Origin: Octopus vulgaris | Lineage: Eukaryota | Direction of reading: 5' to 3' | NCBI GenBank assembly: GCA_951406725.2 | Contig: OX597843.1 | Coordinates: 18,352,001 to 18,416,000, forward strand | Length of the DNA: 64,000 nt | Position numbers and translations under genes: made by a program | Shown: in pieces, positions 25,791 through 58,700 of the stretch | How the letters are laid out: each line of letters starts with the position of its first letter | Numbering within the stretch: the stretch's first letter is position 1 | Notes under the pieces: model-generated | What the model was told of the DNA's origin: nothing | What the model saw: the letters and a program-made list of their open reading frames with translations, nothing else | Databases searched by the model: none

Positions 25791-28700
25791 GTAAGTATTT
25801 GACACTTTCTACGTATTTTCCACATCCAATGTTTTAAATTCTTCTTGATATGTTCGCAGTTAATCGCTTATGCTGTTTATCTCACAGCTTTAAGCACAAT
25901 CTTATGTTAGAGTAAAACAAATCGATATGTTACCTGCTGTGAAGTCAAATAAACTGTTTCTTACCATATTGAATTTATAATATATAACATCGCATACACA
26001 GTGATTGGATCTGACTAGTATCTGACTTTGATGTTATTTGTCTGAACTTATCAAATCTTACGGTATATTCAATGAACGGTCAGTATAAAAACTTTAGTGC
26101 TAAAAAAATGTGTATTTCACATAGTTATATTATATCATTAATTAGTTGAATTGTTGCTTATAGTTACAGTAATATGATATAATATCAGTTGATCGTGTCA
26201 CAGAATAATTGTTAATTATTGTTTGTGTTAGTTTTATAATAGAATATGCAGCGAGCTATCAGAATCGTTGTCCATGCCAGACAAAATGTTGAGCGGTATT
26301 TCGTTCGTCTTTACATTTCAATTTTAAATTCTGCCGAGGTTGACTTTGCTTTTCATTCTTTTGGAGTCGGTAAAATAAATAGCAATATATCTCTGAGATC
26401 AATGCAAAGGACTTGTCCCCTTCCCCAAATTTCAGGTTTGTCCCTATAGAAGAAATGATTATTTTTATAATTAAAAATGATACAGATGGATTAAACTGCA
26501 GATAATGACGAGATCCGCTTAAGTTGCCAAATTCTTAAAAAGTGAAGAAATCAAAATAGTGCTGTTTTAACAAATTATGACGAATTTATTTTTGATAGAA
26601 TGTCATCAGTAAAATTTACCCTACCATGAACACAATAAACCTTATTACAAAACTGTACAAGCTTAATTGAAGTTTCGGCTGATTGATGTATCCCCATTCA
26701 CCCGAAAACTTACGTAATTTTTAAGTAAATTATTAAAATTTAGTATTATTATTATTATTATTATTATTATTATTATTATTATTATTATTATTATTATTAT
26801 TATTATTATTATTATTCTTTTTCTTATTCCACTTCTTCTCGTCCTCCGCCTCCATCTTCTCCTTCTTCTTCTCCTTCTTCTTCTACTTCTTCTTTTTCTC
26901 TTCTTCTTATTATTATTATTCTTCATCTCCTCCTCCTCCTCCTCCTTCTTCTTCTTCATCTTCTTCTTCTTATTATTATTATTAGTAGTAGTAGTAGTAG
27001 AAGTAGTAGTAATAGTAGTAGTATTCATTCTTCTTCTCCTTCTCCCCCTTTTCTCCTCCGCTCTTCATCTCCAGCTCTCTTATTTCTCTCCCTTTCATTC
27101 TAAAGCCACAGTTTTTGATGTTGCATCACAAATATTTTCCATCTAATCTTTTTTACTCTCACTTTACTGCTATAGAAATCTGGAGAACAACCACATTTCA
27201 ACCATCAATGAAGGTGCATTCACGGGGCTTTCCAATTTAAAAAAAATGTAAGTTCGTTCATTTTCTTGATACTATATTCCGAAAGTAATATTTGATGCTG
27301 ATATATACACTCATTACCTAATAATCTTTCAGAGAGCAATTCAAATTTGGGGACCGAACACGATTTAGGAAGATACAAAGAGGGAGTAAGTGAGCGAGAC
27401 ACAAAGAGAGAAAGAGGGAGAAATTGAGAGAGAATGTGAAATAATAGGAAAAATTTAATGTTTCTTTATTGCAGTTGCTTTGTTTCAATTCCAGTCACCA
27501 ACTCATATTTGAGCCTCAAATTTCAATGATTTTTATTTGAATTTGTATTAAAAATTGCAACGTTTGTGAGTTTACATGTTGGCATCAAATATTTTTAGCA
27601 GAAGTATGTGTGTATGTCCATATATAGGTGCATTTCCTTGTGAAATGTGACTAAATCATTCCATTAGCTTATATTTGTTTCTTCTTCTTCTTCTTCTTCT
27701 TCTTCTTCTTCTTCTTCTTCTTCTTCTTCTTCTTCTTCTTCTTCTTCTCCTTCTTCTTCTTGTATTTTCCTATAATATTGTTCCTATACGTAAAGAACAA
27801 TATTTAAACTTTTATGGCAATTCCATACTATGTCAAACTAAGCAATATTATTTTCTGCTTCAGATCTCTAACGAACAATAAAATTTCGAGGGTTGAAAAG
27901 GGAATGTTTCAAGGCCTTCGCCGCTTACAGACTCTGTAAGTTCTTTCAATTTTGTCGTTTATACCTGAGGAATATAATGTGTCTTTAAATTAAATATTCC
28001 CTATTTGTTCTCACTCCCTATTACTTGAAGTCATAATCACTTTTCATATCCGTGCTATATTTATTTGATTGTGTCTGAACATGACAATGACCGGTAGTTG
28101 ATAATTGTCTGCATCAAAATTTTATTCTTGGAAACGTGTATGTTCATATATGTATGAGTGTGACTTTAGTGTTATTATAATACTTATGTTTTAGCGACTG
28201 TTTCCTTTCACATTGTTCTCTTGATTCTTGTGGTAACGTGTGGTTATTTATCCACACTTCCACCGAAATATTTTCCTCTTGTTTTTTCTTGTACTTGTTG
28301 CTGTTCTACGTCTTCTTCTTCTTCTTCTTCTTCTTCTCCTTCTTCTTCTTCTCCTTCTTATTCTTCTCCTTATCACCCTCCTTCGTCTTCTTCTTCTTCT
28401 CCTTCTTCTTCTTCATTTTTCGTATCCTTCTCCTCCCATTCCTCCTCCCTCCTCCCCTCATACCCCTCCCCCTCTTCATCCACCTCCTCTTCTCCTCCTC
28501 CTTCCTCCTCAACCGCTTCTCCTATTCTCCTCCTCCTGCTCCTTTCCCCCTCCTCCTCCTTTCCTCCTCCCCTCCTTTCCTCCTCTCCCTCCTTTCCTCC
28601 TCCTCCTCCTTCTCCTCCCCGTGATCTGTCTTCATTTTTCTTCCTTTCAATCTGAAGCCAGTGTTTGATGCTTTATCACAAATATTTTCCATATAATCAT

Positions 28701-55700: not shown

Positions 55701-58700
55701 TTATTTGAATTTTCATCAAAAATGATTACGTGTGTGAGTTTACATGTTTGCCTCAAATATTTTCAGCTGAAGTATATGTGTATGTTCATATATAAGTGTA
55801 GTTCCGTGTGAAATGTGACTATGTACTTCCTTTATTTTATAATTTGTCTCCTCCTTCATTTCTTATTTCAATATTCTCCTTCGCCTTTCGATATTGTCAT
55901 TCAACATCGAATTCTTCTCCTTCTTCTTCTTCTACTTCTCCTTCTTCTTCTTCTTCTCCTTCGTTTTCTCCTTCTTCTTCTTCATCTTCTACTTCTTCTT
56001 CTTCTTCTTCTTCTTCTTCTTCTTCTTCTTCTTCTCCTTTTTACTCTTGTTCTTCTTTTTCTTCATCTTCTTTTTCTCGTTCTTCTTCTTCATCTTCTAC
56101 TTCTTCTTCTTCTTCTTCTTCTTCTTCTTCTTCTTCTCCTGTCTCTTGTTTTTGTTGTTGTTGTTGTTCTTCTTCTTCTTCTTCTTCTTCTTCTTCTTCT
56201 TCTACTTCTTCTTCTAATTCTTCTTCTCCTTCGTTTTCTTCATCTTCCATATCTTTCTCTTCTTCGTCTTCTTCTTTTTCTCCCCGTCCCCTCTGCCTCC
56301 TCCATCTCCTCCTCCTTCATTTTCTTTTCCTTCAACTTCTTCTTCTTCTTCTTCTTCTTCTTCTTCTTCTTCTTCCCTCCACTTCTTTTTCTTCTTTTTC
56401 TTTTTCTTTTTCTTCTCATTCTTTCTCTTCTCCTCATTTTCCATAAACTTACTCCAGTACTTTCTCCTTGATCACATTTCTCCTTTTTTTCTTTCTCTTC
56501 AACATCTTCCTCCTATTGTCCTTGTCCTCCTGTTCCTGCTCATGCACCACCTTTCGCATACCCTACCCTCTCCTACATCACTCCCTCCTCCGCTACCGTA
56601 TCCTAGCGCCTCCTCTCCTCACCTCCCCTTTTTTCCTCATTCTTCTTCTTCTGCTTCATTTTCATCAACTTACTCCCTTATTTTCTTCATCCTCTGATTT
56701 CTTGTTCTTCTTTTCGTTTTTGTTGTTGTTGTTGTTCTTCTTCTTCTTCTTCTTCTTCTTCGTCTTCCCATTCTTCTTCTACTTTCCCTCCTCTTCTTCT
56801 TCTTCTTCTTCTTCTTCTCCTTCTTCTCCTTTTTCTTCGTCATCCCCTTCTTCTTCTTCTACATTTCCTCTTCTTTTTCGTCCTCTTATCTTTTTTGATA
56901 AACTTACTCCCGTGCTCTCTGCTTCTTCACATTTCTCCTTTCTTATCCTTCACTTCTCATTCATACCCCTAATCTCCTGCTCCTCCACCTCCTCTGCCTT
57001 CCCCTCCCCTCTCATCCACCCTTCTCCCCTCTCCTCTCCTCCCCTCACCCTTTCTCTTCTCCCTCTCCTCATCTTCTTTTTCCTCCTCCTCCTCCAAATC
57101 CCCTCCTCCACCTCAACCTCCCCTCTTCCTCCTCGTCCTTCTCCCTATTCTTGTTCTTTTGCTTTTGTGTCCTACTCATTCTTCTTCTTCTTCTTCTCTT
57201 CACATTTCTCCTTTCTTTTCTTTCACTTCTCCTTTTTTCTCCTGCTCTTCCAGCTCCTCTCTCCTCCCCTCCCCTCTCATAAGCCCTTCTCCCCTTTCCT
57301 TTTCTCTTCTCTTCTCCCCTCATCTTCTTCTTCTCGTCGTCCTCCTCCTCATCCTTCTCCCTATTCTTGTTCTTCTATTTTCGTGTCCTACTCCATCTTC
57401 TTCTTCTTCTTCTCCTTCTGTTTCTTCTTCTGTTTCTACTTCTATTTCTTCTCCTTCTGTTTCTTCTTCTTCTTCTTCTTCTTCTCCTTCTTCTTTTTCT
57501 TCTTCTTCTACTCTTTCTTTTACTTCTTCTCCTTCTTCTTCTTCTACTACTACTTCTTCTTCTCCTTCTTGTTCTACTGCTTCTTTTTCCTCTTCACCTT
57601 CTTTCTATTTCTTTTTACTCTTCAACTTCTTTCTTCTTCTTCTCGTCTATGTTAGCACAGAGGATATTCTCAATAAAATCAGTATTTGCAGCCGCTCCAA
57701 GGTCTTCACATGTTGTGTAGTGGGCACTATGGACATGATGCTTTCTACCCATCTATTGACATAGATTTTTCTGGGGTGTAATATAATGAGATAATCTGTG
57801 AAAAGTGAAGTGTCGTTCTGTGACGTCAACATAAGTGATGCGGGTCTTGTTCTTAGACTAAGCTACGACGGTGACTATTTAGACAACCCTGACCTCAGTA
57901 TATTCTGCCCCGCCAGATCACAGATGCTTAGACCACCCACCATCACTTCAGCAGTGAAGAAAAGCACCGTGAGCGCTGGTGTGACTGGACCCTACTCACT
58001 CAACTCCCTGAGAACAACAATTAAGAAAGAGGAATGATTGCACACGCAGTAGGAGCTAGCGTAAGGATCACCTTGAAGAACCACAGAGTAAAGTTTAACT
58101 AGAAGCTATACATGCAGGTTCAAGGTGCAGCCATTTGTGTCGGTGTATCTGGAGATATTGCTGGCCTCTTCCTGACCTGGCGGGACAGAAAACCTAAGCA
58201 ATCCTTGGCAAAACAGTCCACAACTCTTCTACTTTACAGTAGGTATGTAGATGGCATCAATATCACAGTTAAAACCAGCTCAAGTAACGGTAATGTGGAA
58301 ACTGAGAGGAACATAATGGAGAGCATCCAGCAAGTAGCCAACTCCATCCACCAAAGTATCAAGGTGACTATAGATTATCCCACTAGGCACCCCAACTATG
58401 GACTCCCCGTCCTTGTTACTGAACTTCACTTACAGACTATGAACAACAGAGTGCAGCTCTTCCACTCCTATTACATGATTTAATTAGTAATTCAGTTCTC
58501 AACCTAATTAATTGCATGGTTTTGGCAATGATGATCGAGTCGTAAGCTACATTTGGAGCTGAAATAATTGGAAATTGGTTCTTTAAAACAGTTATGTCAA
58601 AGTTTTTGAGGTCAAAAATGGCAGCGTAAGGCGAAAACGTGACTTTGAATCAAAATATCTCAGTTATTTTCAAAGAAAATGTGTAGATTAACCAGATTTA

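Follow-up and report, generated by a model that had tools for sequence, protein, structure and literature searches.

How does one gene come to carry a long run of nearly interchangeable exons, each encoding exactly one leucine-rich repeat (LRR), and what kind of protein is such a gene likely to make? The question is raised by a stretch of 64,000 nucleotides from Octopus vulgaris (contig OX597843.1, G000:C30:18352001-18416000, hereafter the window), in which an earlier reading of the letters alone, here called the original prediction, had noticed five families of exon cassettes in higher-order blocks. Positions below count from the first letter of the window, and megabase (Mb) positions elsewhere refer to the same contig, C30. 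We consider it probable that the 21 cassettes are interchangeable one-repeat exons of a single gene derived from an LRR-bearing adhesion G-protein-coupled receptor (GPCR) family, that they grew from an A-B-A-D-E set by unequal crossing-over and conversion, and that they are spliced mostly in series, giving a recognition protein, likely secreted, with a long curved arm of LRRs.

A scan for AG...GT exons with the LRR pattern recovers 21 exons of 72 nucleotides (nt) each on the plus strand between 27176 and 55403, all of them stop-free with AG/GT ends. The same scan finds zero LRR exons on the minus strand of the window, and blastn added no broken LRR copies within the array. Pairwise differences bear out the order originally claimed, A B A D E B C C E B C C B C D E B D E B D. 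The earlier count of 21 was right, but it left out a different, 22nd closing LRR exon and the leader exon, which are listed here with the cassettes and two intronic features (the spliced contigs and the sister gene are described below):

25580-25790, plus strand: leader exon with its ATG at 25600, encoding a predicted signal peptide and an LRR N-cap (MFHHIV...TNAEY); contigs of runs X1 and X3 join it to 27176
27176-27247, plus strand: LRR cassette 1 (A), likely ancestral; from exon scan, spliced contigs and sister comparison
27864-27935, plus strand: LRR cassette 2 (B), likely ancestral, groups with sister cassette 2
28726-28797, plus strand: LRR cassette 3 (A3), likely ancestral, placed with sister cassette 3 in the tree; family C likely stems from it
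29668-29800, plus strand: tail of the intron downstream of A3
30377-30448, plus strand: LRR cassette 4 (D); from exon scan and spliced contigs
31225-31325, plus strand: orphan B-type upstream flank with no exon behind it, compatible with a lost cassette
32328-32399, plus strand: LRR cassette 5 (E), upstream flank unlike the later E type
33029-33100, plus strand: LRR cassette 6 (B)
34358-34429, plus strand: LRR cassette 7 (C), retains an A/E-like upstream flank
35109-35180, plus strand: LRR cassette 8 (C)
35796-35867, plus strand: LRR cassette 9 (E)
36369-36440, plus strand: LRR cassette 10 (B)
39084-39155, plus strand: LRR cassette 11 (C), identical to cassette 14
39748-39819, plus strand: LRR cassette 12 (C)
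40965-41036, plus strand: LRR cassette 13 (B), opens a complete B-C-D-E copy (13-16)
42230-42301, plus strand: LRR cassette 14 (C)
44052-44123, plus strand: LRR cassette 15 (D)
46850-46921, plus strand: LRR cassette 16 (E)
47709-47780, plus strand: LRR cassette 17 (B)
49242-49313, plus strand: LRR cassette 18 (D)
52754-52825, plus strand: LRR cassette 19 (E)
53627-53698, plus strand: LRR cassette 20 (B)
55332-55403, plus strand: LRR cassette 21 (D), followed by pre-E intron sequence (56428-56706) without an E exon
59884-59955, plus strand: closing LRR exon (YLQDNPIEHYEDGAF...), the 22nd LRR, unlike the cassettes

Families A to E are all recovered, with nucleotide differences (of 72) of 0-3 within C, 3-6 within D and 3-18 within B, and 10 between the two A exons; E is a loose family (4-15). 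Exons 11 and 14, described earlier as identical, indeed differ at 0 of 72 nt. Every cassette exon has phase 2-2, the split codon being the conserved Leu/Ile, and because all are also 72 nt long, any gain or loss of a cassette keeps the reading frame. Each intron begins with one family's downstream flank, passes through a (TTC)n-rich spacer and ends with the upstream flank of the family that comes next, and low-complexity sequence makes up 47% of the region from 27 to 57 kb. The proposal that each family travels with its own flanks holds in the main: both B upstream motifs stand before 6/6 B exons, with a seventh occurrence (31270/31288) that has no exon behind it, and the C downstream motif is exact after three of the five C exons and has one mismatch after the remaining two. 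It fails for the upstream flanks of C7 and E5, which group outside their own families. Non-microsatellite intron divergence within families is about 1-12%. That the copied unit comprises exon plus intron is confirmed on the single-cassette scale by C11 and C12, whose units are 93% identical over 745 nt. False duplication in the assembly is an unlikely source of the array because within-family introns differ to this extent, and the insertions they carry differ between copies. In 200,000 shuffles of the cassette labels, E followed by B in 4/4 cases is hardly expected (p=0.003), as is any trigram occurring three times (p=0.022); any 4-mer occurring twice is not significant, and E-B-C-C was rejected as a repeated 4-mer, being no better than chance (p=0.12). 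The intron after B10 also holds a perfect 61-bp tandem duplication (36528-36651).

The direction of change can be read against a sister locus at G000:C30:19.61M, which has five cassettes in the order A-B-A-D-E plus a closing exon. It is collinear with the leader of the present gene (94.5% over 1375 nt), its cassettes 1-5 and its closing exon region, with introns 87-95% identical. We built a tree from 152 intact cassettes and their short flanks, omitting closing exons, broken copies, the downstream neighbour and the locus at 19.05M; its bootstrap is not fully settled. There sister cassette 2 pairs with B2 (96/90), sister cassette 3 pairs with A3 (100/90), the four D cassettes together form a clade to which sister cassette 4 is sister (100/96), and the sister's E falls with the E group. 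By comparison, B10/13/17/20 (100/95) and E9/16/19 (100/88) form clades private to this gene. The Octopus sinensis models P0004 and P0048 show the sister's 5+1 set almost unchanged. Because the sister is collinear, the later clades are private and the O. sinensis models keep the 5+1 set, A-B-A-D-E is likely to be the ancestral state, and the expansion or homogenisation appears to have come after the gene duplication. The expansion may then be called recent, as was originally proposed, in the sense that it mostly followed the split from the sister, the dating being relative only.

Family C has no counterpart among the other loci (20 loci examined). A 130-nt tail of the intron downstream of A3 recurs after four of the five C exons (C7, C11, C12 and C14) and after the sister's third cassette, and it follows no later B, D or E, nor A1, which makes it likely that C is a diverged A3. 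If C is counted as A3, the array parses into A1, B2-A3-D4-E5, B6-C7-C8-E9, B10-C11-C12, B13-C14-D15-E16, B17-D18-E19 and B20-D21. Across cassettes 1-21, ancestral adjacencies then number 10/20 against 4.7 in shuffles (p=0.005). The other adjacencies fall into five new junction types, namely E>B four times, C>C twice, B>D twice, and C>E and C>B once each, with D21>closing exon as a sixth. The leftovers are compatible with losses: these are the orphan B flank and pre-E intron sequence without an E exon after both D21 and B20. The separate C-rich block once proposed for exons 7-14 is therefore better read, from the A3 intron tail that follows C, as copies of B-(A3/C)-D-E with losses.

Duplication on the multi-cassette scale, also proposed earlier, is best seen in D15-E16-B17 and D18-E19-B20, where the D>E introns are 96% identical over 1089 unmasked nt and the E>B introns 94%, with one insertion common to both:

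44170-44716, no strand assigned: LTR-like insertion after D15, with TG...CA ends and a target-site repeat of ATAT, carrying an internal deletion when set against the D18 copy
49360-51405, no strand assigned: the same insertion at the same site after D18, longer

The insertion, which we take to be of long terminal repeat (LTR) type from its features and not from a library match, is absent after D4 and D21. A third D-E-B triplet, at cassettes 4-6, had been set beside these two; the later pair is a real late duplication, but the triplet at 4-6 is older (90-95%), and the ancestral copied unit was likelier B-(A3/C)-D-E. Whole-block copying does not account for everything. The downstream introns of D18 and D21 are 98.8% identical over 509 nt, against 96.1% for D15 and D18, though D21 is without the insertion; the E9 exon is nearest E19 (4 nt) and its flanks are nearest E16. 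Trees of flanks and exons, which the original prediction expected to agree, disagree for some copies, namely E9, E5, C7 and D21. Because D21, E9, C7 and E5 have such mixed histories, their sequences indicate that within-cassette crossovers or conversion are needed besides block copying. From intron anatomy it is plausible that breakpoints lay in the (TTC)n spacers, one of which is present in nearly every intron. The earlier idea of repeated unequal crossing-over is thus supported, with the copied unit revised. SINE-like insertions are also found in the D15>E16 intron (45974-46590), with related copies at 5241-7230.

A history of the following kind would fit these patterns. Mispairing between shared flanks or spacers may first have copied B-A3-D-E, creating the E>B junction that is seen four times. 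A3 would then have diverged into C, and later exchanges would have doubled C or lost C, D or E, leaving B6-C-C-E, B10-C-C, B13-C-D-E, B17-D-E and B20-D. Selection may have favoured new residues at concave beta-strand positions, such that length and surface would both vary, by analogy with receptors for changing ligands.

Whether the cassettes are used together or as alternatives was approached with contigs of four runs (X1-X4) that we guessed to be RNA, none being recorded as such, aligned to 25400-32700; the joints considered are 15 of 34. GT..AG joints link the leader to cassette 1 in X1 and X3, and cassettes 1>2, 2>3 and 3>4 in X1, X3 and X4, which come from two studies. Serial use of cassettes 1-4 is thus supported, and mutually exclusive splicing is rejected for these four, which are joined in series in the contigs. 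The loose ends are further compatible with the consecutive joints C>D, D>E16, B>D18 and D>closing exon, though skips could not be told apart among near-identical copies. A joint in which A3 seemed to go back to B2 was considered as a circle or extra repeat and set aside, since it is likely the sister's normal 1>2 junction (by eye, the end of sister cassette 1 differs from that of A3 at 2 of the last 38 letters). A separate X1 contig, with its loose end at window position 32393, joins the end of sister cassette 5 to the start of sister cassette 4. The assembled locus lacks this junction, which could come from an allele with an extra D-E repeat, from another copy or from back-splicing.

A different use of the same exons is possible, and we hold it tentatively: transcripts might skip cassettes in many combinations, so that one gene would offer many LRR surfaces and the duplications would supply alternative exons. 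Symmetric 72-nt exons permit any skip, and two public models of this gene differ by three cassettes. Broken exons in the other regions of the family, often mid-array, need skipping if those genes work, but none of the 22 LRR exons of this gene is broken. RefSeq models of O. sinensis paralogues list 13 and at least 6 isoforms differing only in cassette use; these may reflect skipping, other alleles or mis-mapping, and the hybrid exons in several of them suggest mis-mapped reads or recombinant alleles. Moreover, the joints of cassettes 1-4 are consecutive, and several odd joints, including those non-consecutive ones that can be assigned, match (by eye) the sister gene's own consecutive junctions. 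The preferred reading keeps the cassettes mostly in series.

What kind of protein this arm belongs to follows from the rest of the gene. The exons for an LRR C-cap and for Cys-rich, SEA-like and HRM-like parts lie past the window, at about 18.4175-18.4365 Mb, and the 3' order is LRR C-cap, Cys-rich, SEA-like, HRM-like, a partial repeat of the SEA-like exons and a stop, with AATAAA sites present. The Cys-rich part has a weak, sub-threshold likeness to uPAR/Ly6; the next part, which we presume to be SEA-like, has sub-threshold matches to ACT-like folds (Atlas). The hormone-receptor motif (HRM) is carried by some adhesion GPCRs; the HRM-like part here has a sub-threshold match to PF02793, at E=0.0008 and 20.2 bits, under the cut-off of 26.2. 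P0003 and P0002 are the public O. vulgaris models of the gene, with a 100% match to the leader and the label 'adhesion G-protein coupled receptor G6-like'. The ectodomain is homologous to that of members bearing GPS and seven-transmembrane (7TM) regions, its leader being 83-88% and its later exons 72-94% identical to P0019, which carries GPS and 7tm_2, and P0013, which carries GPS; by this homology the gene is an adhesion-GPCR-derived ectodomain of octopus. The features that define adhesion GPCRs (GAIN with GPS, and 7tm_2) were found in it by neither Pfam nor tblastn: P0003 has no Pfam GAIN/GPS match, and the 39 kb before the next gene's leader hold no tblastn match to the GAIN, GPS or 7TM exons of paralogues, although such matches are present behind both neighbouring genes. 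P0003 also shows no hydrophobic segment after the signal peptide. Because GAIN, GPS and 7TM exons were not found before the next gene, the product is predicted to be secreted; several paralogue models, O. sinensis P0021 among them, have comparable 3' ends without a 7TM part. After its HRM-like exon the gene repeats SEA-like exons, and a second Cys-rich exon region lies beyond the model's stop (18431500-18442000).

A membrane anchor might still be borrowed, if the gene were the variable part of a cluster and were spliced to the next gene's GAIN-GPS-7TM exons, some 100 kb downstream, as the constant part. The two genes share a strand, and the donor of the HRM-like exon has phase 1, as has the first GAIN exon of the neighbour, so that they would join in frame, but all these ectodomain introns have phase 1 and such compatibility is expected anyway. 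With further exons, a stop codon and AATAAA sites of its own here, and a complete head of its own on the neighbour, this arrangement is very improbable.

The repeats themselves suggest that the arm is under selection. Framework residues are invariant (entropy 0 at L2, N5, I7, F15 and L21), and variability is highest at codons 1, 3, 4 and 23, with entropies near 3 bits across 113 paralogue cassettes and of 1.9-2.7 bits across the 21 of this array, in which the convex-side codons 14, 16 and 19 likewise come to about 2 bits. The AlphaFold model of P0002 places codons 23 and 1-4 on the beta-strand (first repeat, E148-153); this single-sequence model is reliable for the LRR part only (mean pLDDT 46, below 50 from residue 416 on). 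Proportions of nonsynonymous (pN) and synonymous (pS) differences were compared at six concave codons fixed beforehand, in independent cassette pairs, with pS as the neutral yardstick; flank distance was set aside since the pairs were picked by smallest flank distance. At the other loci concave pN is 0.313 against a pS of 0.120 (63 pairs, p=5e-25), with a pN of 0.034 at other codons; in this array the values are 0.216 against 0.113 (9 pairs, p=0.03) and 0.045. Change thus appears to concentrate on the predicted binding face, strongly for the family and modestly for this array.

The same figures bear on whether the block pattern means anything at all. A microsatellite-rich, unstable array could churn neutrally while its frame survives, in a membrane-less copy that is decaying or dispensable. 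The low-complexity content, the missing signalling half, the broken cassettes of paralogues and the spread of cassette number across loci would all suit such a history. On the other side, 22/22 exons are intact with a conserved framework (at the 10% breakage of the paralogues, intactness by itself is expected about one time in ten), non-concave pN lies below pS (0.045 < 0.10) while concave pN exceeds it, the gene is spliced in runs of two studies, and the 7TM-less ends recur. We therefore find neutral churn unlikely.

Several observations weigh against our reading, beginning with its history. C exons differ from A3 at 16-17 of 72 nt and do not group with it in the tree of exons with short flanks; without the first five cassettes, ancestral adjacencies fall to 6/15, a borderline value (p=0.052). 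As to splicing, direct joints cover cassettes 1-4 only and none spans cassettes 6-13, the 4>5 joint has other letters and may be D15>E16 placed on the wrong copy, and P0002 and P0003 take in only 10 and 13 of the 21 cassettes. As to selection, concave pS is itself raised (0.15), such that patch conversion or multi-hit codons may contribute to the excess, and the signal within this array is modest, its C copies differing at 0-3 nt. Finally, the sister's B intron matches B6 as closely as it does B2 (90.8% vs 89.9%), for which reason a contraction of the sister with homogenisation here has to be considered. A longer array would then be ancestral, or the array mostly shaped by conversion, with families that look young through homogenisation. 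The conflicts between exon and flank trees point that way, as does the overlap of divergence from the sister (5-13%) with that among the gene's own copies (1-12%). Against it, family C is private to this gene among the loci examined, and block duplication accounts more simply for the insertion that D15 and D18 have in common. We judge this history improbable, and prefer growth from five cassettes.

The gene is one of a large family. Its leader has at least 34 matches in the genome (34/34 candidates scored), at least 15 of them at 89% or more. We compared 20 loci, comprising 18 other regions chosen from close leader or exon matches, the downstream neighbour and this gene; the number of cassettes before the closing exon ranges from 2 to 24, with five regions covered in part. 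Broken exon copies number 16 of 165 in the 18 regions, some of which may be assembly indels, 1 of 18 in the neighbour and 0 of 22 here. The next gene (18470001-18551000) is a more distant member whose 17 cassettes (one broken) form a roughly five-cassette repeat; HRM-like, GAIN, GPS and 7TM exons come after them. The upstream neighbour (18201000-18290000) has 24 cassettes (one broken), higher-order repeats of its own and GAIN/GPS/7TM-like exons. Domains besides LRRs have been amplified too, since the Cys-rich domain stands two to four times in tandem in the O. sinensis models P0004, P0048 and P0021. No O. sinensis orthologue with the same C/D/E cassettes is among the matches listed, where the best non-self octopus matches are 53-62% identical; only the best candidates were scored, which is no evidence of absence.

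Comparable architectures are known from other systems. The variable lymphocyte receptors (VLRs) of agnathans are built of 24-residue LRR modules between an N-cap and a C-cap, vary on the concave face and arise somatically, when conversion fills an incomplete germline gene from flanking, non-exonic cassettes; their expression is clonal and cell-specific. The present gene resembles them in its 24-residue modules, its caps and the concentration of variation on the concave beta-strand, but its cassettes are exons with splice sites in a complete germline gene, cassettes 1-4 being spliced in series, and no somatic step was seen. Dscam1-type arrays consist of mutually exclusive tandem exon copies that arose by duplication of exon plus intron in higher-order blocks. 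The mode of duplication is shared, whereas the neighbouring cassettes 1-4 are here joined in series (1>2, 2>3 and 3>4, in three runs).

The nearest described system, by analogy and not by homology, is that of the Ectocarpus ROCO proteins, intracellular LRR-ROC-COR GTPases of brown algae for which two reports describe one 72-nt exon per LRR, young paralogues with differing LRR numbers, intragenic recombination, diversifying selection, alternative splicing and spare exons on the non-coding strand (Zambounis et al., PMC3341825; Teng et al. 2024, PMC11378527). The single 72-nt exon per repeat and the variable number between young paralogues (21 against 5 in the sister, and 2-24 across the 20 loci) are common to both; the octopus protein differs in being extracellular and adhesion-GPCR-derived, with its 22 LRR exons all lying on the coding strand and no ROC/COR Pfam match. 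Among octopus receptors, the gene is most like group 3, an octopus-specific adhesion GPCR expansion, which has LRRs in 5/22 sequences and tandem co-localisation (Ritschard et al. 2019, PMC6408891); its close paralogue P0019 has GPS and 7tm_2. We infer membership from species and domain content; the 7TM region by which the group is recognised is absent here, as are the GAIN and GPS exons. The passages of that report consulted make no mention of one-exon-per-LRR arrays, variable cassette number or variability of a binding face (PMC6408891).

Unequal crossing-over of frame-symmetric exons is a textbook mechanism, and receptor expansion in octopus is already published. This cassette architecture in octopus was not found in the literature searched, which did not extend to subscription journals. 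What the locus newly offers is direction and order: the sister, the A3 intron tail after C and the shared insertion let growth from 5 to 21 repeats be rebuilt. A wider interpretation, which we offer with some doubt, is that octopus has an inherited, VLR-like recognition repertoire drawn from an adhesion GPCR family, whose membrane and secreted members would vary their LRR arm by fast change of the binding face, by gain or loss of blocks differing between alleles and by cassette skipping; the present gene would count among the secreted members, its array enlarged fourfold and its introns still a readable record of past recombination. If alleles do differ in cassette number and transcripts do skip cassettes, cephalopods would possess a diversified family of LRR recognition proteins, comparable to what has been proposed in brown algae.

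Other repeats surround the gene. A degraded non-LTR retrotransposon with endonuclease- and reverse transcriptase-like frames occupies 17000-22400 on the minus strand, and a piece of it (21025-21222, plus strand) is the false 5' exon of P0002 and P0003. The intron after the closing LRR exon holds a further retrotransposon remnant with reverse transcriptase and endonuclease (61915-63280, minus strand). The gene's 3' exons recur as an inverted copy near 18.562-18.565 Mb. Three copies of a dispersed repeat, each roughly 1-1.5 kb long, are 87-90% alike (30-1013, 3826-5242 and 8731-10425).

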